From Acidobacteriota bacterium (GTDB lineage Bacteria > Acidobacteriota > CAIWXX01), in NCBI GenBank assembly GCA_040755995.1, contig JBFMAF010000055.1, positions 224,001 through 288,000 of the forward strand: DNA of 64,000 nt. Reading direction: 5' to 3'. The notes beneath the pieces were generated by a model. The model saw nothing but the letters and a program-made list of their open reading frames with translations. It was not told the DNA's origin and did not search any database. This document shows positions 1 to 17,413 of this stretch, piece after piece. The position numbers and the translations under genes are program-made. Numbering within the stretch: the stretch's first letter is position 1; the number at the start of each line of letters is the position of its first letter.

Positions 1-287
1 TCATCGACGTTGAGAGCGCAGATCGTCGTATGACCGCAGACCAGGCACACAAACACTCGATTACCGGCCGATTTGGCCTTCGCGAGGGCCGACAGCTCGT
101 CTGGCGCGAAGACGAACTGCCAAGGTGACCGCTTGGTCTTTCGGTACTTCGTGAACACCTGCCGATCCGTGTTCACGAGATAGTGCCCGTAGCGCTTGGA
201 TGCTCGGTTGAGCGCCTTGAAGGAGGGATGCTCGACGATCTGCATCAAGGCGGGGCCGTGGTAGACATCCTGCTCCTGGATCTTCAT
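1..287 (-). CDS. Hypothetical cassette protein, runs off window start (MKIQEQDVYHGPALMQIVEHPSFKALN...)
   Basis: ATG at 287 with AAGGAG RBS, open to base 1; lies directly downstream of the attI-like site and Pc promoter. Not in the supplied ORF track. Confidence 0.75.
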   Translation of the reverse strand, partial: MKIQEQDVYHGPALMQIVEHPSFKALNRASKRYGHYLVNTDRQVFTKYRKTKRSPWQFVFAPDELSALAKAKSAGNRVFVCLVCGHTTICALNVD

Positions 288-309
288 GCGCAGCTCCTTT
301 CGTCCATGC

Positions 310-366
310 GGCGAACCAATGTCTAGATGCTTTCCGGATAAACCCGGTTTCTTGCCCTTCCTTCCA
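310..366 (-). other. attI-like site, type A, copy 1
   Basis: Core GTTCGCC on minus strand; homologous to 6434-6490, with similarity stopping exactly at the AAC/GTT crossover triplet. Confidence 0.65.
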
Positions 367-367
367 G

Positions 368-396
368 ATGATACGCCGCGTAAGAAACCGCGTCAA
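368..396 (-). promoter_or_regulatory. Pc-like sigma70 promoter facing the cassette
   Basis: TTGACG-17bp-TATCAT on minus strand. Confidence 0.75.
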
Positions 397-427
397 CTTG
401 TTTGCCATCAAGGACTTGCGGAACTCT

Positions 428-943
428 TGAGGCCTTTCCAGCTTCTTGGATGGTTTCCGCATAGCATGAATCGCTTCTTTCCTCACAGGGTGTCCGCTGG
501 GCTTGGGGCCTCGCGGACTCAGAACGTCTGTATTGATAGTGCTGGTCCGGAACTGTGCGTTGCTGCCCCCTTTCTCTCCTTGGCCAGAAGCATCGACAAA
601 CCTCAAACGAAGACATCGAACTCTCTATTTGATAAGTGTCATGACCCCATGAGTATCTTGGTTTCCGTTGCCCTGGGCTCGCTTCCAAGGGCCGCGATTC
701 TATGGGAGCACCTTCCCTAACCTCCAGCCCAGACATCCCCCTGGAGGGCGAGCCCGTGTCGGCCACCTCGGTTGGGCGTGGACCGTCTCGCGGGTCTGGT
801 CGTCAACAGTGACCATGACGCCATATGCCTTGTCACTCTTGTACTTCGCCGGGACCGTGACGGTGAACCTGCTCGCCGGGGCCTCGTGGCGGAGACACGG
901 AGAGGAATCTGCTCAGTCGCCGCCGGATCGTGTCAGTCGCAGG
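428..943. repeat. Segment X copy 1 (non-transposase repeat fused to IS110 remnant)
   Basis: Diverged homology to 11123-11716 and 14876-15340; identical junction to the transposase at GGGATCGACAGCGAG. Confidence 0.8.
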
Positions 944-1549
944 GATCGACAGCGAGCTCGGTCTCGCGGATTCAATCGAGCACGTGATTCGCGAGATGGA
1001 GCAGACACTCATTCAAGCAGCATGGCAGGAGGATCGAGCTCGACTGTTGATGACGCTGTCCGGGATCGACTTCTGCGGCGCACAGTCACCGATAGCGGCG
1101 ATGGGATATCTCAGGCGGTTCGTGGATGGGGACCACTTCGCAAGCTATCTCGGGTTGGTGCCTGCGACGCGGGCGTCGGCGAATCACTGTTACCACGGGC
1201 CGATCACGAAATAGGGGCGGAGTCACACCCGATGGACGCTGATTCAGGCCGCACAGCACCTGGCCGATCATCCCGGACCGTTGGGACAGTTCTTCCGCCG
1301 GTTGCTCAAGAAGAACAATCGCAACATCCCTGTCGTGGCGGTGGCGAGGAAACTGGCCGTGATCGCGTACCACATGCTCAAGAACAACGAGCCCTACCGG
1401 TACGCACTGCCGGATTCAACCGGGCAAAAGCTGGCGCGCCTCCGATCCCAGGCGACAGGCCAAAGGCGTCTGCGAAGAGGAGACCAGCGCTGGGGGCCAA
1501 CACGGCCCCCAGTGGTCGATCACTGGAGTTGCGATCCTCAGAGGTATTC
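944..1549 (+). mobile_element. IS110-family remnant 1 (C-terminal transposase domain, nonsense codon, internal deletion, downstream end)
   Basis: FASYLGLVP..RASANHCYHGPITK*GRSH...VAVARKL motif; TAG at 1212-1214; jumps to the downstream non-coding end near 1468. Confidence 0.9.
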
Positions 1550-1568
1550 GTTGGGCCCCGCCCCACTT

Positions 1569-2069
1569 CTAGAAGTAGACGATCTCACCAGTGGGGATGT
1601 AGCACCTGATGTAGGACCGCGTGCTTTCCGGGAATCGGTCGTTGAGAGGATGAAGCAGTTCCTCGATGACTGTGCCGAGATCTACGCGGGTCGGTACCTG
1701 TACCGTGAATTCGCGAATGCCGTAACTGTCTCGGGTGTAGTCCCGTATCAGGGTGAGCTCGCCGTTCTTGACCAGGATTGTCATTCCGATTGGGGTGCCT
1801 TCCACGGAGCTGACTGTTGTGGAAAGGCCGAAAGAACCCCTGCCCGAGAGATAGACATCGAGGAAGCGTTGGCGCTGAGCAGACTCGGATGAGGTTGACA
1901 GAGGTTCAATGGCCGGATCATGAAGGGCAGCGGGCGTTCGGAAAGCACGATGGTACAGACCCTTGGCCGGGCCGTAGAACTGCATGGCAGAGACGAGCAC
2001 CAGGAAGAGAGCCGCTAGGACCGCAGAAACGGCGAGGAGGATTCGGTATGGCTTCGGGAGGGCTGCCAT
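1569..2069 (-). CDS. Hypothetical membrane-anchored cassette protein
   Basis: 166 aa ORF with N-terminal hydrophobic helix; bounded by R' GTTAGGC (2088-2082) and R'' GCCCAAC (1556-1550). Confidence 0.75.
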   Translation of the reverse strand: MAALPKPYRILLAVSAVLAALFLVLVSAMQFYGPAKGLYHRAFRTPAALHDPAIEPLSTSSESAQRQRFLDVYLSGRGSFGLSTTVSSVEGTPIGMTILVKNGELTLIRDYTRDSYGIREFTVQVPTRVDLGTVIEELLHPLNDRFPESTRSYIRCYIPTGEIVYF

Positions 2070-2081
2070 GTATGCCCGGGG

Positions 2082-2153
2082 GCCTAACGCGGCGGCTCAC
2101 CTGCCGGGATGAAGCGCAGCGGGATCCTGGGCAGGTGCAGCCGCTTGTTGGGC
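2082..2153 (-). other. attC site
   Basis: Minus strand GCCCAAC-AAGCGGCTGCACCTGCC...GGCAGGTGAGCCGCCGC-GTTAGGC; imperfect palindrome with the extra base in the L'' arm. Confidence 0.92.
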
Positions 2154-2306
2154 CTCCCTCAGTCTCTGCCGCCTAATCAGTCTGGGGCCTGCCAAGAGTT
2201 GCCGCTTTCGCAAATCCTCAAAAATGGCATGGACATCGTAGTTGAATTGTCTCGCGAGTTGCTCGCGTACCCGCCGAACTTCGGAAACAATCGGGTCCTC
2301 CGACAT
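2097..2306 (-). CDS. Small protein, probable partner/antitoxin of the PIN gene
   Basis: 69 aa (MSEDPIVSEVRRVREQLARQFNYDVHAIFEDLR), starts 4 bp after the PIN stop and ends inside attC. Confidence 0.7.
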   Translation of the reverse strand: MSEDPIVSEVRRVREQLARQFNYDVHAIFEDLRKRQLLAGPRLIRRQRLREAQQAAAPAQDPAALHPGR

Positions 2307-2310
2307 TGCA

Positions 2311-2781
2311 CTACCCTCCCATCAATTCTTCGGGCGTGCAGATCACCGGCATGTCGTACCCTTTCTGGTTGCACACAACTGCAACCCGCCGAATGACCTG
2401 CGCGTTGGCGAGATGCCTGCAGTTCCACGTCAACAGGTAGTCCATCTGGCTGACGGTGGCAACCGCAATGTGCGCTGCATCCCGCACAGCACTCGGTGGT
2501 ATGGCTCCGCTCTCCATGATCCTCGCTGCAAGCGATTCTGCCTCCTCTGTGACTTCAAGCACTGGGAAGTCGCTGATCATTTGGATTCGGGCCTTCGCCT
2601 CATCGGGGTCGCCAGCAGCCCCTTCATCGAGTACAACCTGGGAAACGTAGCACTCGAATTCCCGACGCCGTTCAATCCACCAGTCCTTGGTGGCCTGTTG
2701 ATGGGCCGCCACAAGAAGGTCCCGACTGGGACGAGCGACAAGATAGCTTATGAAGGTCGTCTCGATGTAAACGGTCTCCAT
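2311..2781 (-). CDS. PIN-domain (VapC-like) toxin
   Basis: VYIETTFISYL...VVLDE...DAAHIAVA...LLTWNCRHLAN PIN motifs. Confidence 0.88.
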   Translation of the reverse strand: METVYIETTFISYLVARPSRDLLVAAHQQATKDWWIERRREFECYVSQVVLDEGAAGDPDEAKARIQMISDFPVLEVTEEAESLAARIMESGAIPPSAVRDAAHIAVATVSQMDYLLTWNCRHLANAQVIRRVAVVCNQKGYDMPVICTPEELMGG

Positions 2782-2806
2782 GGTTCCACGCTATTCAATC
2801 TATTCT

Positions 2807-2942
2807 ATCACGAAGGGCCCTCCTTCCCTGGTCGAACACCGATCATCTCGGACCGTTGGGACAGTTCTTCCGAGGGTTGCCCAAGAAGAAGAATCGCAAC
2901 ATCGCCGTCGTGGCGGTGGCGAGGAAACTGGCCGTGATTGCG
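2807..2942 (+). mobile_element. IS110 remnant 2 (short internal fragment)
   Basis: GPLGQFFRGLPKKKNRNIAVVAVARKLAVIA, matching the other copies. Confidence 0.85.
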
Positions 2943-3164
2943 GCCGGCGCACGTCAGCCAGGGCACGTAGCCGATGAACGTCTGGAGTCCCCTCACCCAA
3001 GGCGACTGTTGATCGAAGATGACCTGTTCCCGTCCCATCAACCAGGCCGCAATCGCCAGCCAGTGCCACTCGAGGAGGATCAAGAGCACGAATGTGGCTA
3101 CGCCCAAGAGACCGAAGACGAGGACATCCTTCTGCTGCAGCGAAATGTTGGGCGGTTCAGTCAT
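2943..3164 (-). pseudogene. Membrane protein truncated by IS110 remnant
   Basis: Hydrophobic N-terminal ORF ([21 protein letters not shown]...) reads through into antisense IS110 sequence. Confidence 0.5.
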
Positions 3165-3169
3165 TCAGA

Positions 3170-3549
3170 TCAAAACAGAAGGAGTGCGGGTGTCGTACCT
3201 GGTTTGATTCCAGCCGTCTCCAGCCGTTGAACCAGGCGGATGATCTGTTGTCTGATTTCCTGCGCGTCGAACGGGCGGCCCTGGGCGGAAAGTAGGGTGC
3301 CTCCGAGCCGAGATCGTGCATGCCGAGCTGCCTTGAGCATCGCGTCGTGGACCGCGAGGGGGGCGGGGCTCCGCGGAACTGAATACCCGAAGACCAAATC
3401 CGCGGTGTGTACACGTCCAGCCGCGATTTCCTCGGGAAGAAGTAACCGGGAGGCGTAGAAGTCCAAACGCTGAAGAGGTGGTCTCCGCCAGACTCTCCGC
3501 TTGGATTGTCGAGATGGAAAATGTCCATGTCGCCCCAGGGCAGGCCCAA
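3170..3549 (-). pseudogene. ZipA C-terminal-like domain gene, frameshifted
   Basis: [24 protein letters not shown] / [32 protein letters not shown] is split over two frames and resembles the ZipA_C pattern. Confidence 0.55.
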
Positions 3550-3565
3550 GGAGTTTGTGAAAGCC

Positions 3566-3643
3566 GCCTGACGTCGAGCGTCACCCTCGGTTCACCTGGC
3601 GTCCGCGCCGGTTGAACGGTAGTGGTCCTCGATCTTGTTGGGA
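3566..3643 (-). other. attC site (R' variant GTCAGGC)
   Basis: Minus TCCCAAC...hairpin...GTCAGGC; the R'' TCCCAAC complements the GTTGGGA that opens the FKBP cassette. Confidence 0.75.
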
Positions 3644-4461
3644 GGTTCTCGTCTCTTTGATGCCGCCTCGTGTTCAAGCAGTTCACCTATCCACTTCAAC
3701 AGCGGCGACTCTTTCAATGCTTGGCTGGTTTCCGCCAACGAGTAGTACACGACCCACTGGCCGCGTTCCATTACTCCGATGGTTAAGCAGAGTGAGTTGG
3801 TCGCCCGATCTCTGGTGATCGCATTGCCTGACTCCGCCATGTCTGCCCATAGTTCTTCGTGTCGGAAGCAGTCCGTTGGATAGCGCTTTGGCAACGCTGC
3901 GGCGTCGACGAGGAGTGAGCGTGCCGTCTCAGCGTCCACGTTCGCGTCGAGATGTGAGTGGCTTGCGTGGCGCCAAGGCATCCCCGGAATGGAATGCGTG
4001 AGAGATACGCCAGAACGTCCGTCCTCCTCAAGACCAAATTGCCACCGAGGCTGATTGCGAGCGGCGATTCCGGGGTGAAACACGAAGAGGTGTTTGCCGG
4101 GGGGGTAGTCCTCCGGTTTTCTGACGCCTGACTCTCGGACGTCGAGGAGTTCCACGACGGCATGGATCACCGCGTTGGGCGGCACATAGCCTGGTATCCC
4201 GGATGCGCCGTAGGCCAAATGCGGACTGATCTTCAGTTCTCGGATTCCACCAACACGCATTCCCTCAATTCCGTACCTCAAACCGGCAATGCAGTCTCGT
4301 CGCTTCAGGTCTACTACCATCCGCGGGTCACCCGTGAGTGTGCCCGTCAGTTCCGTGCCGTGATTGAGAAACAAGCGGACGTTGGCGGCCACCGTCTTCC
4401 CGTGCACAGCTTCTTCGCCTGTGCCGATCACAATGTCTTTTGCCTTCACACCCGAACGCAT
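3592..4461 (-). CDS. FKBP-type peptidyl-prolyl isomerase with unknown C-terminal domain (cassette)
   Basis: DIVIGTG..IAGLRYGIEGMRVGGIRELKISPHLAYG..VPPNAVIHAVVELL; ATG at 4461 preferred because the longer start lies in attC. Confidence 0.85.
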   Translation of the reverse strand: MRSGVKAKDIVIGTGEEAVHGKTVAANVRLFLNHGTELTGTLTGDPRMVVDLKRRDCIAGLRYGIEGMRVGGIRELKISPHLAYGASGIPGYVPPNAVIHAVVELLDVRESGVRKPEDYPPGKHLFVFHPGIAARNQPRWQFGLEEDGRSGVSLTHSIPGMPWRHASHSHLDANVDAETARSLLVDAAALPKRYPTDCFRHEELWADMAESGNAITRDRATNSLCLTIGVMERGQWVVYYSLAETSQALKESPLLKWIGELLEHEAASKRREPPNKIEDHYRSTGADAR

Positions 4462-4488
4462 TCTGTCCCTACCTGCTTTCTCCGCTGT

Positions 4489-4552
4489 TCCCAACGAATA
4501 GCCTCAGCGACGCCGGCCCGTGGCCGGCGTCCAGTGGAGCGTGTTCTTGAAC
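4489..4552 (-). other. attC site with degenerate R''
   Basis: Central GACGCCGGCC/GGCCGGCGTC hairpin; R' GTTGGGA; R'' position reads GTTCAAG. Confidence 0.7.
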
Positions 4553-4616
4553 TGAGCCGCTGGCGCGCCAGTTTCGTGTTCATTCACTTCCGCCTGGGAA
4601 TCAAGCATAGTAGACC
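4547..4616 (+). mobile_element. Orphan end of tyrosine-recombinase element (copy of 17077-17146)
   Basis: TTGAACTGAGCCGCTGGCGCG...TTCACTTCCGCC.GGGAATCAA.CAT.GTAGACC shared with 17077-17146. Confidence 0.7.
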
Positions 4617-4620
4617 CCAA

Positions 4621-5041
4621 GACCACTTCGCAAGCTATCTCGGGTTGGTGCCTGCACCGCGGGCGTCGGCGAATCACTGTTACCACAGGCCGATCACGAA
4701 GCAGGGGCGCACTCATACCCGATGGATGTCGATTAAGGCGGCACAGCACCTGGCCGATCATCCCGGACCGTTGGGACAGTTCTTCCGACGGTTGCTCAAG
4801 AAGAAGAATCGCAACATCGCCGTCGTGGCGGTGGCGAGGAAGCCGGCCGTGATCGCGCACCACATGCTCAAGAACAACGAGCCCTACCGGTACGCACTGC
4901 CGGATTCAACCGGCCAAAAGCTGGCGCGCCTCCGATCCCAGACGACAGGCCAAAGGCGCAAGAGCGGACAATCGAAGGAGGCTGCCGAGAAGCGACGAGT
5001 CGGAACGCGGAGCCGCACGGTGCCCTCACTCGCAACGGTCT
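4621..5041 (+). mobile_element. IS110 remnant 3
   Basis: DHFASYLGLVP...RSRTVPSLATV; both ends truncated. Confidence 0.9.
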
Positions 5042-5053
5042 TCTCAGGGTTCA

Positions 5054-6439
5054 CTATTGGCGCCCTCGCGGCTTCAGTAGCGTTCGCAGCCTTCTTGCAA
5101 TGAGGTGTATCTGTCGGTCGGGCCTTACCGCGTTGAAGGCGAGCTCCGCACATGCGTCGACGACGCGCGCCTCATCCTGCTTCCCCCGAAGGATGCACAG
5201 CCACTCTAGGATTTGTAATATGGCAACCATCAGATGAGCCGTATGATAGGAGCTTGGCGACGAGAACTCGGTTCGCAACGCCTCAAACGCTCGTTCAGCC
5301 TCCGCGAGTTTTCCCAAGGCCAAGTAACCCCTGCAGGTCGCCCCAAGAGCGTTAAGACGCCGGTGCCAGTATTCCTGGCTGTGCGGCTCTGACTTCCACT
5401 GCTCCAGCCTGCCCTCCAGCTTCGCAAGGAGCCGAGGGACCGAGGGCAGCCCTGGTCTGCTCCACAGTGCTGGGTAGGATGCGGCATTCAGTGCCTCAGT
5501 GGCGCGAATAATCTGGTCCTTCAGCGGCCGCCTCGACGCACTGCCCTCCTCGAATAGCTTCTGGCATCTCGCCCAGTCGGCATTGGAGGGATTCTCCATG
5601 CATCGCAGGAGTTCCACGAAAGCCTTTTCATATTTGGCTACCGGCATGCTGTGGCCGTCAAGCTGCTTCAAGGCCTCCGACGCCTCCTTTGATTTGCCGA
5701 GGCGTCGGAGAACACGTGCCTTCTTCAAGACCAATTCAGGAAGAACGGCGGGTCGAACGAGGGAGATCTGACGCGAGCCGAGGAGCTCCCTTACGATCTG
5801 GAGAGCGCGGTCCGGCTCTCCGCCTTCTATGAGTCGTTCTGCATCCTGGAGGCTTCGCGACGCAATCGCCTCGGTCGGGTTAACAGTCGTGGCGAGGAGC
5901 CACTCGCGGACACCTGTCCAGGGTGGCTTGGTGTACTTGATGGCTGGGCCTGCAAGGTTCCGCACGACTGAGCACCCTCTCTTCCCGAATTGCACCGCGC
6001 CCACTCTGTCGAGTCTCCCAAAGTCCAAGAGCGTCAGGCGCAGCGGAGTGGGGCCGCGATTCCTATGCCTGCATTCGACGAGACAGAGAACAACGGGCAG
6101 ACGCTGCAGCAACCAGTATTCATGGTGGCGCTCCCTCGCGCTGAACGCGATCTTGTCCCCGGGGCGGTCGAAGCTTGCGGCGCTCGTCTTCACCTGAAGC
6201 AGGATGTGCCCCATCGGGCGCTCCGTTGCCGGTAGCTCGACTGCGGCGTCGATGCCGATGTCCTGACCGGTCAACTCTCGCCAGATGAAGCCCGTTTCGA
6301 CGGCGCAACGGTGGACGTAAGCTACGCCGAGTCGATCGATTAGATCACTACCAGGATGTTCCGGAGTATTGGCGAGTGACGCATTGCGTCGACGTTGGAT
6401 CAGCAGGCTCCCACTCTGCTCGTGGATCCGGGCGCCCAA
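5054..6439 (-). CDS. DUF4365-like PD-(D/E)xK nuclease domain plus helical/TPR-like region (start uncertain)
   Basis: LGVAYV..GFIWRE..QDIGIDAAVEL..LLQVKTS motif with an all-helical C-terminus; first gene after attI-A copy 2. Confidence 0.75.
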   Translation of the reverse strand: MGARIHEQSGSLLIQRRRNASLANTPEHPGSDLIDRLGVAYVHRCAVETGFIWRELTGQDIGIDAAVELPATERPMGHILLQVKTSAASFDRPGDKIAFSARERHHEYWLLQRLPVVLCLVECRHRNRGPTPLRLTLLDFGRLDRVGAVQFGKRGCSVVRNLAGPAIKYTKPPWTGVREWLLATTVNPTEAIASRSLQDAERLIEGGEPDRALQIVRELLGSRQISLVRPAVLPELVLKKARVLRRLGKSKEASEALKQLDGHSMPVAKYEKAFVELLRCMENPSNADWARCQKLFEEGSASRRPLKDQIIRATEALNAASYPALWSRPGLPSVPRLLAKLEGRLEQWKSEPHSQEYWHRRLNALGATCRGYLALGKLAEAERAFEALRTEFSSPSSYHTAHLMVAILQILEWLCILRGKQDEARVVDACAELAFNAVRPDRQIHLIARRLRTLLKPRGRQ

Positions 6440-6490
6440 CCAATGTTCATGTGGTTTCCAGATAGACCCCGTCTCTTACCTTTCCATCGA
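6434..6490 (-). other. attI-like site, type A, copy 2
   Basis: GTTGGGC core; homologous to 310-366 only on the promoter side of the GTT. Confidence 0.7.
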
Positions 6491-6491
6491 G

Positions 6492-6520
6492 ATAGTACAC
6501 GGCGTACGGCCCCGTGTCAA
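6492..6520 (-). promoter_or_regulatory. Pc-like sigma70 promoter
   Basis: TTGACA-17bp-TACTAT on minus strand, at the same position as 368-396. Confidence 0.8.
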
Positions 6521-6574
6521 CGTGACTGGCATGAAACCATGAAGCAGTAATTCCTGTTCCGCTACAATCTCAGC

Positions 6575-7704
6575 GGCTGGTCTCGTGTATCGGACCGGAC
6601 GAGGGTGAAGAACCGGATCCACTCAATCCTGGCTCAACGGTTGATCGCGGTTCCCTTCAAGCAACTCTACTCACCGAAGGGGATTCAGTGGCTCCGGAAT
6701 CTGGCACTGGAGCGAGATGACCGGCAGGCGATCGACAGCGAGCTCAGGCCCCTAGATTCAATCGAGCACGAGATTCGCGAGACGGAGCAGACACTCATTC
6801 AGGCAGCATGGCAGGAGGATCGAGTTCGACTGTTGATGACGCGGTTCGGGATCGACTTCTGCGGCGCACAGTCATTGATAGAGGCGATGGGAGATCTCAG
6901 CCGATTCACGGATCGGGACCACTTCGCAAGCCATCTCGGGTTGGTGCCGTCGACGGGGGCGTCAGCGAATCACTGTCACCACGGGCCGATCACGAAGCAG
7001 GGGCGGAGTCAAACCCGATGGATGTTGATTCAGGCTGCACAGCACCTGGCCGATCATCCCGGACCGTTGGGACAGTTCTACGGAGGGGTGCCCAAGAAGA
7101 AGAATCGCAACATCGCCGTCGTGGCGGTGGCGAGGAAGCTGGCCGTGATCGCCTACCACATGCTCAAGAACAACCAGCCCTACCGGTACGCAATGCCGGA
7201 TTCAACCGGGCAAAAGCTGGTGCATCTCCGATCCCAGGCGACAGGCCAAAGGCGCAGGACCGGACCATCGAAGGAAGCTGCCGAGAACCGACGGGTCGGA
7301 GCGCAGAGCCGCACGGTGCCCTAACTCGCAACGGTCTACCAGCGTGAGGGAGTGCCCGCACTCCGAGCCCCCGAGTCGCTGCCGGCTGGCGAGAAGCGCA
7401 TGATCGAGGAACGCAAACTTCGACCGTTCAACCAGACTATCGACACCGCGCAAAGACACGAACAGAAGAGCCCCCACCGGCCGAATGCAGTCGCGAGTGT
7501 GAACTGAGATGAGAGATCTGCTGCGCCTCGACGACACGAGCCGACAGGCTCCTGAACATGACGCATCGAGGGCCCGCAACGACCGAGGCTCCCGTCTGCC
7601 AGGCTCACCGAATCAAGGATTCGTCTGTCAAGAAGAGACCACCGCTGGGGGCCTGTACGGCCCCCAGTGGCCGATCACAGGAGTTGCAATCCTCAGAGGT
7701 ATTC
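6575..7704 (+). mobile_element. IS110 remnant 4 (longest; no N-terminal DEDD domain, premature stop, about 200 bp downstream non-coding end)
   Basis: RTRVKNRIHSILAQ...ARKLAVIAYHMLK; TAA at 7322-7324; natural stop at 7505-7507. Confidence 0.92.
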
Positions 7705-7712
7705 GTTCGAAG

Positions 7713-8564
7713 CTACTTCCGCAAATCCGGTACAAGCTCTGAGAGCCTTAACGATGGCTTCATCTTCCGAGGCCATTGAATCCCTCTCCTGGGTGTCCTC
7801 GTCCAGAAGCTTATCTTGTACTGCTCCAAGTCAAAGTGGACCTTGACGTCGTCGTTCTTGCCGTGAGCGTGATCGGATCTGCACGTCAGAAGAAGCGGAA
7901 CACCGAGACCGTGAGCAAACCCAACCTCGAAGTAGACTGATGGTCTTGCATACGTGAGGTCGGCGATTGCACAAGCACACTCCGTGATGCCCTCCAGAAT
8001 CGCCTCGGTAATGGTCTGCTTGGGTTCGGTCATATCTACTCGCACAGGCTCGTAACCCAAACTGGCGCATGCCGGAGCAAGTTGGTTGTCGTAAAGCATG
8101 TCTATATCCGAATGACCGAATGCACAAGCCACAAAGACGTTGGCTCGCCGCTCTGGCGCCGGGCGGAGAACGAGTCGCCGCTCCTCCTTGATGCTATTGG
8201 CAACTCGCTTGCCTTCGTGGGTGAGTTCAACAGCGACTTCTGAGAGGCTCCCATACGGAAGTAATAGCTTCTCCCCTGTGTCGCGCCGCGCCAAACCTGT
8301 ATAGCCTGGCCTCTGGATGAGCCCAACGGCAATGAGACCTTCCACAGTTCGCTCAAGCTCGGACAGCTTCGGCCTGTCAAGCGCGAAAAAGCGATCTTCC
8401 CGCGCTCTGTCCGCGACGACCCGAATAAAGGCGGAGAAATCCGACTCGGCAAAATCAACTGCCTTTACGACTCGCTGCAATGTCGGGAATGGGATGCTGC
8501 CCGTCTCCCCGAGTATGCGAAGCACCAATCTCTGGGGCCGATTCAATCGGATGTTGACTTTCAT
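7713..8564 (-). CDS. Nucleoside 2-deoxyribosyltransferase/TIR-like C-terminal domain protein (cassette)
   Basis: VFVACAF..GYEPVRVD..IADLTYARPSVYFEVGFAHGLG..HFDL motif. Confidence 0.8.
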   Translation of the reverse strand: MKVNIRLNRPQRLVLRILGETGSIPFPTLQRVVKAVDFAESDFSAFIRVVADRAREDRFFALDRPKLSELERTVEGLIAVGLIQRPGYTGLARRDTGEKLLLPYGSLSEVAVELTHEGKRVANSIKEERRLVLRPAPERRANVFVACAFGHSDIDMLYDNQLAPACASLGYEPVRVDMTEPKQTITEAILEGITECACAIADLTYARPSVYFEVGFAHGLGVPLLLTCRSDHAHGKNDDVKVHFDLEQYKISFWTRTPRRGIQWPRKMKPSLRLSELVPDLRK

Positions 8565-8579
8565 TCAGGTTCCTCATTG

Positions 8580-8638
8580 CTTCAACGTCGCGGATCACGC
8601 GCGGCTACAAGCCGTCGCGTGCATCCGGCTTGTTGGGC
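8580..8638 (-). other. attC site (59 bp)
   Basis: Minus GCCCAAC-AAGCCGGATGCACGCG...CGCGTGATCCGCGAC-GTTGAAG. Confidence 0.92.
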
Positions 8639-8640
8639 AC

Positions 8641-9381
8641 TCACATCCCTGTTCGGAGTTCATCGTCATCCTTGAAGAAATCCCGCAACTCTGGAGCGTG
8701 GCGGAGGGTGAAGTCCTTCGCTTCCCGAAGAAGCATGGACCTGTCTTCGGTCTTGAATCGGTGTTCTGGAAAAGGCCAGCCTGTGAGTTCGATTGCACCT
8801 TGGTGCACAACCAGCGTGCGCCATGCCGGCGCTTCCGTTGGGATCGTTCCAACCCGCTGCTGCACCGATTTGGGCGAGTCACCGCGTTGCGCGCAGTTCT
8901 GCTCCGTCTTCTTCTCGAGGTCCTTCCAATCAAACATCTCCGCGAGAGGCGTAGACGACGGATTCAAGACAAGCACGTGCGGAACACCCACGGCATCCTT
9001 GATCTCGGCAATGCCAAGCATGGCAGGCAAGACAGGCGCATACAGCTCCGCCTTTGCGACATCCGCATCAAGATTGTGTAGGATCAGGCATTGCCATACG
9101 CCACGAACCGTGAAGAAGAGGACTCTTGCCGTCGGGAACCATTCCATCTTCTCGGGGGCGCACGGTATCTGACGACATGAATCGCCCAGCGTTGTAAGGA
9201 CGCTGTGCAGTTCTCTCCGCAACTTCGGATGCGCGTACAGTGGATCATCGGACTCTCGACGGGGACCTTCGGGCCGAAGTCGATACGGATCGATGGATAC
9301 GGCGTCATTCCGAATCAGATCCGCCAACGGCCCCTTGCCTACGCCTCCAGGGCCGACGATGATGAGTGTCTTCTTGATCAT
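8641..9381 (-). CDS. P-loop nucleotide-kinase-like protein (cassette)
   Basis: N-terminal IIVGPGGVGKG Walker A of guanylate/NMP kinase type. Confidence 0.7.
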   Translation of the reverse strand: MIKKTLIIVGPGGVGKGPLADLIRNDAVSIDPYRLRPEGPRRESDDPLYAHPKLRRELHSVLTTLGDSCRQIPCAPEKMEWFPTARVLFFTVRGVWQCLILHNLDADVAKAELYAPVLPAMLGIAEIKDAVGVPHVLVLNPSSTPLAEMFDWKDLEKKTEQNCAQRGDSPKSVQQRVGTIPTEAPAWRTLVVHQGAIELTGWPFPEHRFKTEDRSMLLREAKDFTLRHAPELRDFFKDDDELRTGM

Positions 9382-9395
9382 GATGTTCCCTCTAT

Positions 9396-9452
9396 GCCCA
9401 ACGTACGGCTCACCGGTGAGCGAAGCGAATGCAGGGCAGCCGATTGATGGGC
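9396..9452 (-). other. attC site (R'' variant GCCCATC)
   Basis: Minus GCCCATC-AATCGGCTGCCC...GGTGAGCCGTAC-GTTGGGC. Confidence 0.8.
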
Positions 9453-9472
9453 GCCGACTTCCACACCAGCTC

Positions 9473-10426
9473 TCAGTGCTCCCAGCGATCCCGGAGTTCG
9501 ATCAAGATATCCGCCAAATGGCTCTCGAACGCTCTATAGAGGTTCTCCACAAGTTCTCCACTAGCGACGACTGGAGGAGATTCTGGCAGAGGACCAACGC
9601 ACTCGATGATCAACCTGCCAGAAGCGTCGCTGATCGCATGCTTCTCCGTCACGCCGTCGTCAGAAGAAAATGAGGCACTTGCTTGTTGGCTGCCGCCAAT
9701 GGCCGGAAGCACGCAGTGCCACACAGGCACGGAGCGTCGAAGGGAGACTCTGGAAACGCCAGCCAAGACAGCGGAATCCGATGACTGGGAGCCAGTCACC
9801 TTCCGGTGTGTGGAGGCCAACACAGGGGCAACGTAATGGGTGATTTCGTCCCTTCGACTTATCAGCTGGCCAGCCCATCCGTCAAGCGCATCCGAAACAA
9901 GGGTAGATATCCTGTCGCCGGAGCCGAACATGTTGCGTAGCTTGGCGTACCGATGCACACCGACTTTTCCGAGGGAGTAACTAGCGACGAGTCGCGCAAG
10001 ATGGTCAAGGGTACTTCGCATTGAAGAAAGCAGCGCTTCAAATTCCGACTCAAGTCTCGCATCTTGGAGAGAGATCGTGAACGAGGCGTTGGCATTCGGA
10101 AGTAACGAACCGACGTCGTCTCCTGAGGAATCGGTGGTCCCTCGTTTCTCGACCTCGGCAAACCGTGATTCGTGCTCGCTGAGGACCTCCCTCCACCGTT
10201 CGAGACGGTATCTAGATCCCACCAGCTTGCGATACAGGCTCGCCACTCGTGCTAGGTACTCCTCTAGCGCTACGTGAATGAGTTCGGGAGCGGCGCCACC
10301 TCGCGGGATAATCCTATCGATTAGCAGGTCAAGACGACTGAATTCGGCCGGAGCAGATAGCGTCTCGTGCGTTGTGTTGGGTTGCAGGGATATCTTGGAA
10401 AGGAGTTGGTCGATCATATTGGCCAT
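9473..10426 (-). CDS. HEPN-like (Cthe_2314-type) protein (cassette)
   Basis: RSTLDHLARLV and RDEITHY (Rx4H) motifs. Confidence 0.65.
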   Translation of the reverse strand: MANMIDQLLSKISLQPNTTHETLSAPAEFSRLDLLIDRIIPRGGAAPELIHVALEEYLARVASLYRKLVGSRYRLERWREVLSEHESRFAEVEKRGTTDSSGDDVGSLLPNANASFTISLQDARLESEFEALLSSMRSTLDHLARLVASYSLGKVGVHRYAKLRNMFGSGDRISTLVSDALDGWAGQLISRRDEITHYVAPVLASTHRKVTGSQSSDSAVLAGVSRVSLRRSVPVWHCVLPAIGGSQQASASFSSDDGVTEKHAISDASGRLIIECVGPLPESPPVVASGELVENLYRAFESHLADILIELRDRWEH

Positions 10427-10484
10427 GGGTCACATCCGCGCTGTCAATTCACTGGATCCCGCCTCTAACAACTGTTCCTCGTTC

Positions 10485-10650
10485 GCCCAACAATGATTAG
10501 ATTGATCCGCATAGGATGCGGAACTTCACTTTCCTCCCGGTATCGCACACCGCTGATTCATCTGGCAGTTTCGCGATAACCCCTTCTGTTTCGGTCGCTT
10601 CTGCCCTATGCTTTGACTCATCCTCCAATCCTATGCGGATCGGCATAACC
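10485..10650 (-). other. attI-like site, type B, copy 1 (downstream of co-directional intI)
   Basis: GTTGGGC core at 10491-10485; homologous to 14255-14420 up to the AAC; 14-bp inverted repeat 10504-10517/10628-10641. Confidence 0.75.
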
Positions 10651-10664
10651 ACCTCCTCGTTGCC

Positions 10665-11027
10665 TCAAAGTCCCTCAACCGGGCTGCGTACGCCGGCCGG
10701 GCCACGGTTGAGGACATGGGTATAGATCATCGTCGTCGAAACGTCGCTGTGACCTGGGAGTTCCTGGGTGGCCCGCCCGGGTTGCCCTGCGCGATGGCCC
10801 ACCGAGTTCACCGGACCAAGTGAAGGGTGCACCTCCACCGGTTCTCCCGCGAAGAGGTTGAGGAGTCGAGGTAGCATCCCCTCGGTGTCCAGCACTGTCC
10901 AATAGCTCTCTTCGGGATGCCAGCGCCGATCATGGATAGTCTTGATCTTCTCCACTCGTTGCCACTCATACGGCACGATCACTCTCAACCGCCCCCTGGG
11001 TCCTGGATCAATGACCACAGAACTCAT
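10665..11027 (-). pseudogene. intI: Integron integrase with large internal deletion
   Basis: C-terminus [29 protein letters not shown] fused to an N-terminal extension; catalytic core missing. Confidence 0.88.
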
Positions 11028-11044
11028 CGCTGCGAACTCCCTGC

Positions 11045-11073
11045 ATTCTGAACAGAGGCGACGAATGTGTCAA
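11045..11073 (-). promoter_or_regulatory. Candidate intI promoter
   Basis: TTGACA-17bp-CAGAAT, 17 bp upstream of the ATG. Confidence 0.6.
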
Positions 11074-11122
11074 CAAGGCTTGCCCATGCCCGTCGAGCCG
11101 GCGAGCATTCGCGCGACTCCTC

Positions 11123-11716
11123 ATGGCTTTCCGGCGGCTTAGATGGTCTCTACATGACATGCGTCGCTTCTTTCCTCACAAGGTGCCCGCCGGGCTTCTG
11201 GCCCCTCGGCCTCCGAGATTCAGAAGGTTCCTGTTGATCATGTTTGTCCGCAACGGCACGTTGCTGCCCCCCTCCTCTCCCTCGCCAGAAGCATCGACAA
11301 GCCCGAAACCAAGGCATGGACTCCTCTCCTACAAATAAATAGTGTCGTGACCCCATGGGTATCTTGGCGTCCCTTGACTTCGGCTCGCTTCCAGGGGCCG
11401 GGATTTTACGGGTTCACCTTTCCTGACCTCCAGCCCCGGCATCCCCCCGGGGGGCGCGCCCGTGTGGGCAACCTGGTTTCGGCGTGGACGGCATCGTCTC
11501 GCTGGTCTGGCCGTCAACCGTGACCATGACGCCGTATGCCTTGTCACTCTTGCACTTCGCCGGGTTCCTGACGGTGAACCTGCTCGTCGAGGCCTTATGG
11601 GGTTGATCGGGCGAACAGCGGGGACGCCTCGCGATGCCGGACTAGGCGCCCGGGCCTCGTGGCGGACGCACGGAGAGCAGTCTGCTCAGTCGCCGCCGGA
11701 TAGTGCCAGTCGCCGG
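11123..11716. repeat. Segment X copy 2
   Basis: Homologous to 428-943 and 14876-15340. Confidence 0.8.
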
Positions 11717-12399
11717 GATCGACAGCGAGCTTAGGCTCCTGGATACAATGGAGCACGAGATTCGCGAGATGGAGCAGACACTCATTCAAGCAGCATGGCA
11801 GGAGGATCGAGTTCGACTGTTGATGACGCTGTCCGGGATCGACTTCTGCGGCGCACAGTCGCCGGTTGCGACGATGGGAGATCCCAGGCGGTTCGAGGAT
11901 GCGGACCACTTCGCAAGCTATCTCGGGTTGGTGCCTGCGACGCGGGCGTCGGCGAATCACTGTTACCACGGGCCGATCACGAAGTAGGGGCGGAGTCACA
12001 CCCGATGGACGCTGATTCAGGCCGCACAGCACCCGGCCGATCATCCCGGACCGTTGGGACAGTTCTTCCGACGGTTGCTCAAGAAGAAGAATCGCAACAT
12101 CGCCCTCGTGGCGGTGGCGAGGAAGCTGGCCGTGATCGCGTCCCACATGCTCAAGAACAACGAGCCCTACCGGTACGCGCTGCCGGATTCAACCGGGCAA
12201 GAGCTGGCGCATCTCCGATCCCAGGCGACAGGCCAAAAACGCAAGACCGGACCATCGCAGGAAGCTGCCGAGAAGCGACGCGTCGGAACGCGGAGCCGCA
12301 CGGTGCCCTCACTCGCAACGGTCTACCAGCGTGAGGGAGTGCCCCTACTCCGAGCCCCAGAATCGCCGCCGCCTGGCGAGAAGCGAATGATCGAGGAAC
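11717..12399 (+). mobile_element. IS110 remnant 5
   Basis: Same transposase segment; TAG at 11985-11987 at the same codon as remnant 1. Confidence 0.9.
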
Positions 12400-12460
12400 C
12401 CTCCCGTTCAAGGTAGAAGGCGTCGCCCTGCGCTACTGGAAATGCGATGAACTGGGGCAT
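12400..12460 (-). pseudogene. N-terminal stub of a ComEC/MBL-fold hydrolase cassette
   Basis: MPQFIAFPVAQGDAFYLEREG (V.QGDA motif), cut by the IS110 remnant. Confidence 0.6.
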
Positions 12461-12470
12461 GTCTTGCTCG

Positions 12471-12512
12471 TTGTAACGACAGGCATGACGCGCGAGAAAT
12501 GGCACGTTCCCC
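12471..12512 (-). other. Partially deleted attC
   Basis: Minus GGGGAAC...GCGCGTCATGCCTGTC-GTTACAA; right arm typical, left arm missing. Confidence 0.55.
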
Positions 12513-12515
12513 GCA

Positions 12516-14201
12516 CTATTTCTCGTCGCTGTCCATGCCTTCGTTAGATTGTATTTCGACCAGGCCTCTTTCGAGGAGGGCCTGAAACGCTTCCTGCCTC
12601 CTGTGTTCGTCGCTCGCCTTCATCATTCTGAGGCCCACATCTCGAAAGCACTCGCTGGACAGGCCATGGCCAATGTCCGCGCCGGCCAACGTGATTTTCA
12701 AATACTCCCGATAAAATGGGACCTCGTGAGACAATGAACCAGTAGCTTCCAAAACATTACACACCGCACTGAACGTCCTTCTTGCTGATTTCCTGGTAAT
12801 GCGCAATGTAGTGCACCAGAGAAGAGGTCTCAGCACGTAATCCAACACCCATTCTTCCATAGCTATGAGGGGGAGTCCTTCATGATTCTTACTATGATTC
12901 GCGATTCGATCTATCAGGGCGACAACACGAGGCGCAATCGCTCCAGATTCACGCCTCGGGCCGTCAATGCGGTCAAAGAGGAGTGCGTCAATTTCCCGGA
13001 ACATAACCTCCAAGTCACCTATTCCCATCACCCCTCGAAGCCTATCTATGCCGGAGGCCCCAGTAACTACCTTTGCTGAGGCGAGGATATAGTCGGCTCT
13101 TTCCTCTAAGAGATGCATCCTTTCTTTGTAAGGGAGAATCTCAGTTTCCAAACCCCGAGCGAACACCTTGGCCCGCGTGACCTCCGAAAAGGCGCGGACC
13201 ATTTGGCTATGCGGATAGTAAAGGCGTAGATGAATCGGATCACGAAGAGCGCAAAGCTCCACAATAGAACGTTGCTTAGCGTTGAGAGAGCCCCAGCGTC
13301 TCTCGAACCAAGGGTATCCTAAACTTAAGATGCTAGCGTCCGGTTCTTCTCCAACAATGTGAAACAATTCATCACACACATAACCGGTCGGTTCATTCTC
13401 CGCAAGATGGAGCAGCATGTACATCCCGTTCGCTCGCTTATCAGAATCGGAAAGGCCACAAAAAAACAGCGCGGAAGAAACAAGGAAGGCGAATTCCCGT
13501 TCAGAAAAGGCCGAAAGCTTTGCATTCTCGATGAGCATTTGCCGCGCCGCCATAAGCTGTTGCGGATGACTTAGGTTGTCGCCATCTTCCACCGAATATG
13601 CCACCCACCGCAGCGTCCTCGAGTTGATATCCTCTCTTCCCTCCTTATCCTTGATAACGGCTTCGCATGCGGATTTTGCGTCATCTGCTTTCGGCGCTCT
13701 CAGTTGATGGCCAGTGCTCCAATCAGTATTGAACGGTAGGCGATTACCGTTCCGTACCTCAACTGACAGCCGATCCAGTTCATCTTGGTGGTAGCACTCG
13801 AAATATGGTGTGTCAGAAAGACTATCAGGTACGACCGAATGTGGGACCATATGTGCAACCATTACCCTTGACGCTGACGCTTGTCTTTCGACTTCAATCG
13901 CAGGCAGATATTCTGCGCGGCACCACACTGAATCGCGAAAACGATCATCGACGGACAATACTACAAAGCGAGAGCGAATCAGAGCCGAGCTCACCACTTC
14001 TTGAACTCTTCGATCGCGTAGATCTTGATCATCATCATGCCAAACCATGACGCCGCGGGCGCCAAGTTCTTGAGCAAGCCTCTTCGAGTGTTCGTCTCCT
14101 CTGTTATGACTAATGAACGCATCGAACTGAAACGAACGGTCACCGTATTCTTTCGACCATGAAACTGGGAGAAACGGATGCAAATCTATGTGCCCGATCA
14201 T
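12516..14201 (-). CDS. TIR-domain protein with long helical C-terminus
   Basis: FDAFISHN..GVMVWHD..ALIRSRFVVLSV..SVWCRAEY TIR motif including the catalytic-position Glu. Confidence 0.85.
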   Translation of the reverse strand: MIGHIDLHPFLPVSWSKEYGDRSFQFDAFISHNRGDEHSKRLAQELGARGVMVWHDDDQDLRDRRVQEVVSSALIRSRFVVLSVDDRFRDSVWCRAEYLPAIEVERQASASRVMVAHMVPHSVVPDSLSDTPYFECYHQDELDRLSVEVRNGNRLPFNTDWSTGHQLRAPKADDAKSACEAVIKDKEGREDINSRTLRWVAYSVEDGDNLSHPQQLMAARQMLIENAKLSAFSEREFAFLVSSALFFCGLSDSDKRANGMYMLLHLAENEPTGYVCDELFHIVGEEPDASILSLGYPWFERRWGSLNAKQRSIVELCALRDPIHLRLYYPHSQMVRAFSEVTRAKVFARGLETEILPYKERMHLLEERADYILASAKVVTGASGIDRLRGVMGIGDLEVMFREIDALLFDRIDGPRRESGAIAPRVVALIDRIANHSKNHEGLPLIAMEEWVLDYVLRPLLWCTTLRITRKSARRTFSAVCNVLEATGSLSHEVPFYREYLKITLAGADIGHGLSSECFRDVGLRMMKASDEHRRQEAFQALLERGLVEIQSNEGMDSDEK

Positions 14202-14254
14202 GCCGAAACCTCAAGAACAAAAATACGTCACTACTCCCGACACCACACCAAGCG

Positions 14255-14420
14255 ATCTAACAATAACTAGATTGATCCGCATAAGGTGCGGGACTTCGCT
14301 TTGGTGCCGGTATCGCAGGCCGCTGATTCATCTGGCGGTTTCGCGACAACCCCTTCTGTTTCAGTCATTTGTGTGCTATCCTTTGACTTGTCCTCCGATC
14401 TTATGCGGATCGGCATAACA
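14255..14420 (-). other. attI-like site, type B, copy 2
   Basis: GTTAGAT core; homologous to 10485-10650. Confidence 0.75.
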
Positions 14421-14434
14421 ACCTCCTCGTTGCC

Positions 14435-14873
14435 TCAATGTCCGTCAACCGGGCTGCGTACGCCGGCTGGGCCGCGGCTGAGGGCATGGGTATAGATCAT
14501 CGTCGTCGAAACGTCGCTGTGGCCTGGGAGTTCCCGGACCGTGCGGATATCGCACCTGCTTTTGACCGAGTGGGTGGCGAAGGAACGGTCGAAGGTGTTG
14601 CACGTAGCCCTCTTGGTCAAGCCAGCGTTCACCACCACTGCGTCCCCGACGGCTTTCTGAATGAGCGATTCACCCACATGGTGCCGTCCTTCCTCACCGG
14701 TCTTCCGGTTCCTCCGCCGGTTCTCCTGCGGAAAGATCCATTGCCACCGCCAGTCCTTCGACGCAGTGGGGTACTTGCGGTCGAGGGCATCCGGCAACAG
14801 GACGCGACCCTAGCTTTCCAGCAGGTCCCGTTCGTGGACCATCTTGACTGTCTTGAGATGCTCCTGAAGCGGG
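14435..14873 (-). pseudogene. intI: Integron integrase C-terminal half, inactivated
   Basis: [42 protein letters not shown] (integron-specific insertion)..[25 protein letters not shown]; stop codon present and HxxR lost. Confidence 0.92.
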
Positions 14874-14875
14874 TG

Positions 14876-15340
14876 TCCCTCGCCAGAAGCATCGACAAGC
14901 ATGAAACCAAGGCATCGACTGCTCTCCTACAATTAATAAGTGTCGTGACCCCCTGGGTATCTTGGCATCCGTTCACCTCGGCTCGCTTCCAAGGGCCGCG
15001 ATTCTACGGCTTCACCTTTCCTACTAGCCTCCAGCCCCGGCATCCCCCCTAGGGGGGCGATCCCGTGTGGGCAACCTCGTTTCGGCGTGGACGGCATCGT
15101 CTCGCTGGTCCGGCCGTCAACCGTGACCATGACGCCATATGCCTTGTCACTCTTGCACTTCGCCGGGATCGTGAGGGTGAACCTGCTCGTCGGGGCCTTA
15201 TCGGGTTGATCAGGCGAACAGCGGGACCCCCTCCCGCGGTGTCGCCGACGCGCCGCCATGCCGAGTGAAACGCCCGGGCCTCGTGGCGGAGGCACGGAGA
15301 GGAGTCTGCTCAGTCGCCGCCGGATGGTGTCAGTAGCAGG
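14876..15340. repeat. Segment X copy 3 (left-truncated)
   Basis: Begins TCCCTCGCCAGAAGCATCGAC as at 11278; same junction to IS110. Confidence 0.8.
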
Positions 15341-16315
15341 GATCGACAGCGAGCTCAGGCTCCTGGATTCAATCCAGCACGAGATTCGCGAGATGGAGCA
15401 GACACTCATTCAAGCAGCATGGCAGGAGGATCGAGTGCGACTGTTGATGACGCTGTCCGGGATCCATTTCTACGGCGCACAGTCACTGATAGCGGCGATG
15501 GGAGATCCCAGACGGTTCCAGGATGGGGACCACTTCGCAAGCTATCTCGGGTTGGTGCCGTCGACGCGGGCGTCGGCGAATGGCTATTACCACGGGCCGA
15601 CCACGAAGCAGGGGCGGAGTCACACCCGATGGATGTTGATTCAGGCCGCACGGCACCTGGCCGGTCATCCCGGTCCGTTGGGACAGTTCTTCCGACGGCT
15701 GCTCAAGAAGAAGAATCGCAACATCGCCGTCGTGGCGGTGGCGAGGAAGCCGGCCGCAATCGCGTACCACATCCTCAAGAACAACGAGCCCCACCGGTAC
15801 GCACTGCCGGATTCAACCGGGGAAGAGCTGGCGCGCCTCCGATCCCAGGCGACAGGCCAAAGGCGCAAGACCGGATCATCGAAGGAAGCTGCTGGGAAGC
15901 GACGGGTCGGAACGCGGAGCCGCACGGTGCCCTCACTCGCAACGGTCTACCAGCGCGAAGGAGTGCCCGGACTCCGAGCCCCAGAGTCGCTGCCGGCTGG
16001 CGAGAAGCGCATGATCGAGGAACGCAAACTTCGACCGTTCATCAAGAGTATCAACACCGCCCAAAGACGCGAGCAGAAGAGCCCCCAGCGGACGAATGCA
16101 AACGCGAGTGGGAACTGAGATGAGAGATCTGCTGAGCCTCGACGACACCAGCCGGCAGGCTCCTGACCAAGACGCATGGATGACCCGCAACGACCGAGGC
16201 TCCCGTCTGTCAGGCCCACCGAATCACGGATACGTCTGTCAAGAAGAGCCCAGCGCTGGGGGCCAGCACCGCCCGCGGTGGCCGATCACCGGAGTTGCAG
16301 TCCTCAGAGGTGCTC
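15341..16315 (+). mobile_element. IS110 remnant 6 with downstream non-coding end
   Basis: Open C-terminal transposase frame to TGA 16118; downstream end matches 7508-7704. Confidence 0.92.
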
Positions 16316-16349
16316 GTTGGCGCACCCTGAATGTACCCAGGTGGATGGC

Positions 16350-16991
16350 TCAGCTCCTCAGCTTGCTTTCTCTGCTAATGTCTATCAAAGAAAACGTCCT
16401 GATGACTTCAGTCGCAATCTGTCTGATGGACGGCGGAACGGGGTCATTCAGAGGAGACTTCTCGCCCGTTGCGCTTCTTATCCACCATCCGGCTGTGTTT
16501 TGTCGGCTCAGATCATAGTATTTCTCGTCAAGAGAGGCATCGACATGTGCTCCGCCATCCCGGTCAGCTGTTTCCAGGATGAGCCTCTTGCGGGTGAAGG
16601 ACTCTTTGTTCTGATCGACAATTACCTTCTTGCGGTTCCACCAGTTGTCGATGCTCACGAGGTTGTAACTGGGGTTGTCGGAAGGCACGTATGTGATCTC
16701 TTTGTCCGGCATGTCTACTCGAGTGCTCAACAAGCCCAAATGGGTTAGAAGATTCTCCGGATCGTACGGCCGACAGGTATCTACAATGCTGATGTGCTCC
16801 AATTTCAATAGCCGGAGCAGAGACTTCTGGTTGTTCGTGTTGCTGAAAATAAGCCGGATCTTTACGGCCATGTCCTGGGCGTAGTGGTACTCCCCACGGT
16901 CGTACAATTCGCAAAGGCCGGAAAGTTTGTTGACCTGATCTGAGAGCTTGTTCACGAGTTCAACTTTTGTTACTGGCTTCTTGGTGTCCAT
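16350..16991 (-). CDS. Hypothetical cassette protein, possible HEPN-like RNase
   Basis: 213 aa, lower GC, good RBS; ADRDGGAHVD motif; flanked by complementary GTTGGGCGCACCC / GGGTGCGCCAAC. Confidence 0.7.
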   Translation of the reverse strand: MDTKKPVTKVELVNKLSDQVNKLSGLCELYDRGEYHYAQDMAVKIRLIFSNTNNQKSLLRLLKLEHISIVDTCRPYDPENLLTHLGLLSTRVDMPDKEITYVPSDNPSYNLVSIDNWWNRKKVIVDQNKESFTRKRLILETADRDGGAHVDASLDEKYYDLSRQNTAGWWIRSATGEKSPLNDPVPPSIRQIATEVIRTFSLIDISRESKLRS

Positions 16992-17044
16992 GATATCTCC
17001 TCATCCTGAGGCCTCACCGATGAGAATCATTTCCGATTGGGTGC

Positions 17045-17082
17045 GCCCAACACCGCGGGTCAGCTGCATCCGCTTGTTGAAC
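17045..17082 (-). other. attC site with central deletion
   Basis: Minus GTTCAAC-AAGCGGATGCAGCTGACCCGCGGT-GTTGGGC; only 38 bp. Confidence 0.65.
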
Positions 17083-17394: not shown

Positions 17395-17413
17395 GCCCCG
17401 GCGCCGTCCGCTC

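Follow-up and report, generated by a model that had tools for sequence, protein, structure and literature searches.

Degenerate IS110-family copies abutting the R'' boxes of cassettes in a decayed Acidobacteriota integron: probable RNA-guided insertion into attC

Introduction

Among the insertion sequences (ISs) closest in behaviour to the one considered here, ISPa21 and ISPst6 lie close to the 5' end of attC, in antisense orientation, according to the portion of PMC3001079 drawn on here; ISPa21 is the name given, in an extract of PMC7232449, to the element in In416 of plasmid pME-1a. We inspected that sequence, and it runs from the smr stop through GCGCTAAC and AATTC into the antisense IS, and out of it into CCTTCAAGCC...GTTAGAT. 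The 3' non-coding side of ISPa21 adjoins R'' and the 5-nt spacer. The IS1111-attC group was reportedly described by Tetu & Holmes 2008 and Post & Hall 2009, and the former are said to have noted degenerate remnants of such elements left behind in chromosomal arrays. In this study we analyse a 64-kb stretch of an Acidobacteriota genome (G000:C55:224001-288000, the window in what follows), where broken copies of an IS110-family element stand against the gene cassettes of a chromosomal integron.

We put at roughly three in four the probability that this element invaded the array at least three times through the spacer beside R'' of attC, guided by RNA, and that its copies decayed later. The junctions themselves, the homology of the element's end and a guide-RNA module found in its relatives carry this reading, together with the parallel in ISPa21.

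Results

Right ends of the IS adjoin three different cassettes

A repeat search of the window returned an 86-nt IS110-family right end three times, at 1467-1552, 7622-7707 and 16233-16318, the second and third copies being 88% and 84% like the first. As the original prediction had it, this conserved end is followed by GTT at 1550, 7705 and 16316, after which the sequences diverge; the three flanks are alike over T(A/G)-(T/C)TCGTT-(G/C), and past GTT they have no mutual similarity in a self-BLAST. Minus-strand open reading frames (ORFs) of the cassettes end 16, 5 and 31 nt beyond junctions A, C and E (Table 1), which agrees with the 5-31 bp from the cassette stops first proposed.

Each flanking GTT had also been held to mirror the opening R' box of its own cassette. 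We searched the 64 kb for inverted copies of the flanks, allowing at most one error. For junction E, the inverted copy at the opening box of cassette E (17039-17051) is the sole one, where 0.36 are expected. The match of junction C at 8579-8586 is one of 21 copies and that of junction A at 2081-2088 one of 52; the cassette A 8-mer match, taken alone, is at chance level. Because each match adjoins the ORF start of its cassette, the three are jointly far beyond chance, and the mirroring stands. A fourth junction at C55:222675, upstream of the window, repeats junction A with the same cassette. It duplicates the first, and we therefore count three independent junctions.

Sequencing run X1 (organism A) contains contigs about 90% like the IS, taken at a likeness of at least 80%, which cover 6747-7707. 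Three of them follow the IS end as far as 7707, immediately behind GTT; from there they are unlike the window, starting AGGCGAC... with a mutual agreement of 0.64. Two X1 records (6 and 8) continue for 1.7-2.6 kb beyond 7707. These contigs hint at the same kind of junction in a relative, short of proof.

The window copies are dead remnants

All nine IS pieces of the genome are confined to C55:221953-240318; where they match copy C, the identity is 87-94%. The IS110-family C-terminal domain Transposase_20 (PF02371) is present in copies C (E=1.7e-16), E (E=1.4e-17) and B (E=1.9e-07). A match to NF033542 (E=9e-34, 117 bits) does not reach the cut-off of 140 bits, the protein being partial. The DEDD domain PF01548 is absent from every window copy, and the genome's only match to it (DEDD_Tnp_IS110) lies on contig C24 and belongs to another IS. 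The full-length relatives P0001-P0120 do have PF01548, which makes the window copies truncated members of the IS110 family. Every one has lost the left end and the bridge RNA along with the DEDD domain, and the copies are therefore dead. Copy A and a copy A' have a common internal deletion and a duplicated cassette, the two versions of the cassette being 93.8% alike. Sequence X lies, in copy D, upstream of an intI remnant.

Relatives reveal a left-end guide RNA

The nearest full-length relative, P0001, comes from a 1,637-bp contig and is 85% identical to the window element, and full-length relatives have about 437 aa. Relatives are encoded by 546 of 580 stretches in genome_contigs; from the best 80 we retained 76 loci, 49-63% identical to P0001, from metagenome-assembled genomes labelled Gemmataceae, other Planctomycetota, Sorangium, Bryobacterales, Acidobacteriaceae and others. 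In these relatives the terminal repeats are short and the core is TA. In those with multiple copies the right end reads ...TTGACA-N10-A(G/T)AGG and then TA, and the left end TA and then CC.GG(T/C)ATGA; joined as a circle, the two ends give a promoter with 17 nt between -35 and -10. The window end (TTGCAA-TCCTCAGAGG-TA), set before CCTCG-TATGAG, the left end in sister genome G001, gives a 17-nt promoter spacing too.

The guide RNA of the relatives sits in a left end of 320-650 nt. It is conserved and has two stem/internal-loop modules (26 pairs across 30 sequences, 11 with compensatory changes). The 3' arm of module 1 repeats the left flank plus the core: GTCGTA in most families, CTTTTTTA in L079, L083 and L095, and CTGTCTTA in G001, as against gtgtct before TA. 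Module 2 tracks the right end of its own element (AGAGGTA versus ATAGGTA). The module occurs at 69 of the 76 loci. We dropped junctions with no usable right-end match, those not starting T(A/G), those with N in the flank, and duplicate guide-flank pairs, which left 56 junctions and 29 guides. In this set the reverse complement of the 5' arm matches its own right flank at 4.04 of 7 positions, compared with 2.39 for other guides, and none of 5000 label permutations reached the observed value. The signal spans positions 3-9, and the 5' arm covers the core and about 7 nt of the right flank; the length over which the window flanks agree equals this guide footprint. A left-end bridge RNA of the IS110 group is thus present, in relatives only. 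A guide in the 3' non-coding region, judged from its fold and from 6-mers compared by eye, was dropped as a candidate once the left-end module had been found. Sequence X was rejected as the IS left end, having no similarity to that of G001, and so was a left-end junction like that of G001 at 6463-6481, with a local alignment score of 21 (shuffles: mean 17.7, maximum 27) in a segment that falls in repeat Y.

The element probably ends at the TA core

Relatives end in AGAGG+TA, the promoter spacing is 17 nt and the guide footprint covers the core and about 7 nt beyond, and on these grounds we take the window element to end in ...CAGAGG with a TA core. The TTC that precedes GTT is then most likely attC spacer, belonging to the target, and the crossover would lie 3-5 nt past AAC, not at AAC. 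The proposal that the IS is joined base-precisely at AAC is not supported. One could still suppose an element with the end ...GGTATTC that recombines within R'' itself, at GTT/AAC, base-precisely at the inverse core: TATTC or TGCTC is found at all window junctions, the G001 end reads TAATC before CTT, and the X1 contigs match through GTT. We consider this improbable, as right ends at the 56 junctions stop at AGAGG+TA and are variable beyond, the promoter spacing would widen from 17 to 20 nt, and the footprint already predicts conservation over TA and 7 nt.

Searches for further copies gave little. In a phylum-wide protein search, 5 of 401 genomes had matches at E<=1e-60; G001 (89%) was the only close match besides the window copies (79-83%), the others reaching at most 57%. 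G151, one of the five, carries no claim made here. The right-end pattern had no match in a metagenome scan; a scan with an alignment of P0001-P0003 gave 414 pattern stretches, none confirmed, and yielded no live close relative with flanks. Every match in a plasmid tblastn was below 60% identity. An empty-site copy of cassette C was found in none of 400 other genomes (cassettes A and E were not searched), and cassette C is uncovered in sequencing runs X1 and X2.

Sister IS lineages (L024-L099, for example L027:4200-6260 and L035:2-2098) insert where (G)TC(G/A) precedes TA, the reverse complement of Tyr-Asp codons. An RHS_repeat ORF stands beside the IS in both loci tested, on the right flank of L027 (E=5e-85, 11 repeats) and the left flank of L035 (E=1.7e-17); the opposite flanking ORFs have no Pfam family. 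The bridge RNAs of these lineages seem to target the YD repeat of RHS genes. In the genome of the window a single family member is intact. It lies at G000:C24:196265-197497 and has a 453-aa open frame 57% identical to P0001, and its guide arms read as a GTCGTA-type target rather than attC.

The setting is a decayed chromosomal integron

The region is a decayed chromosomal integron, with intI, attI and cassettes bounded by attC hairpins. No intI is intact within the window, and the genome's best, on C36, carries one TAA. Both intI remnants lie on the same strand as the cassette ORFs. Downstream of each is a 176-nt segment, at 10489-10664 and 14259-14434, after which the cassettes begin, differing from one another, at ...ATT followed by GTTGGGC and ...ATT followed by GTTAGAT (minus strand). 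These two segments are probably attI, and the intI gene and the cassettes would then point the same way. Further intI/attI paralogues are at G000:C36:325985-326929, C34:88101-88665, C33:135623-135862 and C47:241-545; the only full-length one among them has a TAA stop. A crude attC scanner returned noise and missed known sites.

Several neighbouring features were recorded. The attC at 8584-8636 alone is matched by several contigs of X1 and of a sediment metagenome run; the flanks of these matches are unrelated, and this type of attC is therefore common to several organisms. A repeat, D16, occurs at 4544-4616 and 17074-17146 (85% alike) and adjoins two attC sites on their R'' side; beyond one of the copies, 17204-17340 encodes the N-terminus of a tyrosine recombinase fragment. 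D16 may be the end of another attC-seeking element. A 561-aa TIR-domain protein (12516-14201) and a DUF4365 + TPR protein (5054-6439) are possible defence genes. A repeat of about 90 nt, 79% alike, is found in the window at 315-400 and 6439-6528 and elsewhere at G000:C28:59887-59976 and C4:107026-107112; on the minus strand it holds a TTGACA-17-TACTAT promoter and a leader with a short ORF starting MNIG, and it precedes unrelated genes. At 42032-42162 there is a run of 7-nt AATGCAA-like units, reported as 14/21-nt spaced repeats.

Table 1. Junctions, IS copies and integron features of the window (positions within the window)
Feature	Position	Strand	Description
Junction A	GTT 1550-1552; core TA 1545-1546		...CAGAGG TA TTC GTT GGGCC
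Junction A, flank	1547..1557	+	TTC (probably attC spacer) + GTTGGGCC, complement of the cassette A R'' box
Junction C	GTT 7705-7707; core TA 7700-7701		...CAGAGG TA TTC GTT CGAAGC
Junction C, flank	7702..7713	+	TTC + GTTCGAAGC, complement of cassette C R''; overlaps the stop codon
Junction E	GTT 16316-16318; TG at core position 16311-16312		...CAGAGG TG CTC GTT GGCGCACCC
Junction E, flank	16313..16327	+	CTC + GTTGGCGCACCC, complement of cassette E R''
Sequence X	404..938		joined to one IS position in copies A, D (11097-11646) and E (14876-15270)
IS copy A	939..1546	+	5'-truncated transposase C-terminal pseudogene; internal deletion (equivalent 7254->7622); right end kept; PF02371 only
Internal IS fragment	2839..2945	+	107 nt
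IS fragment B	4621..5041	+	cut on both sides
IS copy C	6587..7701	+	longest; matches P0001 residues 129-437; premature TAA 7322-7324; frame would end near 7505; also 3' non-coding region, -35-like TTGCAA and right end
IS fragment D	11647..12399	+	5' truncation as in A and E; 3' part lost
IS copy E	15271..16312	+	5' truncation as in A and D; right end kept
Cassette A ORF	1569..2069	-	166 aa, no Pfam family
attC, intact	2081..2154	-	hairpin -25.3 kcal/mol; R' end opens cassette A
attC	4489..4552	-	holds the sole unoccupied AAC-GAATA, 4493-4500 (+ strand reading), at its R' end
Cassette C ORF	7713..8564	-	283 aa; Nuc_deoxyrib_tr match weak, below cut-off
attC, intact	8579..8638	-	core hairpin -18.9 kcal/mol, z -4.1; R' end opens cassette C
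attI, probable	10489..10664	-	176 nt, downstream of intI remnant; 88% like 14259-14434
intI remnant	10665..11027	-	last 40 residues match TIGR02249 positions 275-314
intI remnant	14444..14875	-	TIGR02249 positions 171-313, 177 bits, one TAG stop
Cassette E ORF	16350..16991	-	213 aa, no Pfam family
attC-like site, short	17039..17082	-	opens cassette E; adjoins the end of another element (repeat D16, from 17074)

Discussion

Proposed course of events

For the guide of this lineage, the crossover at TA and the order of events we infer the following. Each insertion would have been a recombination with attC in the 5-nt spacer that separates R'' (1L) from L'' (2L). The crossover would have fallen at a TA core 3 nt beyond AAC, with the transposase gene running antisense to the cassettes and the right end adjoining R''. 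The choice of target was most likely guided by RNA, the expected guide match being TA+TTCGTTG, that is, spacer plus R''. Later deletions would have stripped all copies of their left ends; the bridge RNA, the DEDD domain and that half of the split attC which comprises L''-L'-R' would have gone too. Unequal crossover among directly repeated IS copies would have duplicated cassette A and the intI-attI-X modules, and would account for the mosaic of A/D/E and of A'/A. The original prediction that attC has been replaced is right insofar as cassettes A, C and E are without a usable attC, but the loss appears to be secondary, brought about by those deletions and by unequal crossover between copies, every one of which has lost its left end. 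Left without attC, the cassettes are therefore fixed in place. With confidence a little better than even, we further suggest that an IS110 lineage with a left-end bridge RNA was re-programmed to the R'' spacer of attC while its sisters target the YD codons of RHS genes, that it arrived independently at the attC position of the unrelated IS1111-attC group, and that unequal crossovers between its repeated copies multiplied the intI-attI modules within the array.

Several observations weigh against this account. No left end is kept, and the left junction, the split-off half of attC and the lineage's own guide are unreadable as a result. The left end of a close relative (G001:C344) predicts the right flank TG+ATTTCTATCG, unlike the window flanks, and the right-end flank of G001 itself, TA+ATCCTTAACC, is not clearly attC and misfits the prediction from the G001 guide. 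Copy E has TG at the core position. The intact attC sites of the array read ...GCTT-GTT, not TATTC-GTT, and the array holds no unoccupied AAC-GAATA target at an R'' end. The left truncation is common to copies A, D and E, whose left sides are therefore not independent. The guide signal of the left arm is weak in the relatives (132/193 matches for own guides versus 2714/4452 for others), because most families share GTCGTA.

A rival reading is an element with no aim at attC at all, one with a loose preference for TCGT-like sequence whose insertions survived only in a dispensable cassette array. The right flanks accepted by sister lineages vary, with TCGTA-like sites favoured, flanks of SoGT47 such as TA+TTCGAAA look like those of the window, and there is the G001 flank just mentioned. 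Three independent junctions at an equal distance from R'', and more GTT-RRRY junctions in run X1, speak against such looseness, and we hold it to be slightly less probable even than an end at ...GGTATTC. Least probable is one ancestral insertion at which the integron integrase or another recombinase swapped cassettes, using an attI-like IS-R'' hybrid: A, D and E do share their left structure (X plus truncated IS) while the A and E cassettes differ, and intI remnants lie beside X, but the real attI is elsewhere with junctions of ...ATT before GTT, the conserved end is an IS right end that occurs outside integrons in many phyla, and unequal crossover between IS copies explains the common left side, cassette A being indeed duplicated. 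The attI-like site offered as the second option in the original prediction falls with it. Integron integrases are not known to react at R'' unless attC is folded.

If insertion guided to attC is the true course, attC targeting arose at least twice in RNA-guided DEDD recombinases, at the same few bases, and the R''-L'' spacer is a preferred entry point into integrons. The locus would show the end state of such an invasion, with the integron platform duplicated and decaying. The window has dead remnants only; a live copy of the lineage would supply a natural bridge RNA aimed at attC.

Comparison with known systems

Group IIC-attC introns likewise enter attC close to its 5' end, in antisense orientation relative to the cassettes, as stated in the part of PMC3001079 that treats them. 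They are retro-elements with a mechanism unrelated to that of the IS110 lineage, and Rfam on 1-20000 returned no intron or known RNA family, the sole match at E<=1 being Ocean-V, below threshold.

Elements of the IS110 group with bridge RNAs, such as IS621, resemble the relatives of the window element in having a left-end RNA with two internal-loop modules, as set out in the section of PMC11208160 that describes it. As far as that section goes, one module of IS621 matches the target flanks and the other the element ends, and a promoter is rebuilt at the circle junction, as in the relatives. Unlike in IS621, the target here is an integron attC, and the RNA is gone from the window copies.

The IS1111-attC group (ISPa21, ISPst6, ISKpn4, ISPa25) shares with the window lineage a DEDD enzyme of the IS110 family with RNA-guided targeting (for the seekRNA of the group see PMC11187229) and the use of certain attC sites only. 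The two differ in where the RNA sits. In the IS1111-attC group the seek RNA is in a long right end and the left end is short, whereas the relatives of the window element have the guide in the left end; judged on the relatives 49-63% identical to P0001 and on the left end of G001, a right-end seek RNA does not belong to this lineage. The transposases are also distant. P0001 has 437 aa against 347 aa for that of ISPa21, with 28% identity over 268 aa (E=7e-15), which by pairwise identity, not by tree, places P0001 outside the IS1111-attC clade. In the IS110/IS1111 literature searched, as far as the portions consulted extend, attC targeting is credited to the IS1111 group only.

What the window copies have in common with that group is the insertion itself, in attC near R'' and antisense. 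On the same strand as in ISPa21 the window reads RYYYAAC-GAA-TA and then the IS, and position and orientation are equal. Of the attC-R''-targeting IS110 originally put forward as new, the site-specific, antisense insertion at R'' therefore stands and the novelty does not. The behaviour is a known one, and at this locus it is met in dead copies of a lineage separate from the IS1111-attC group.

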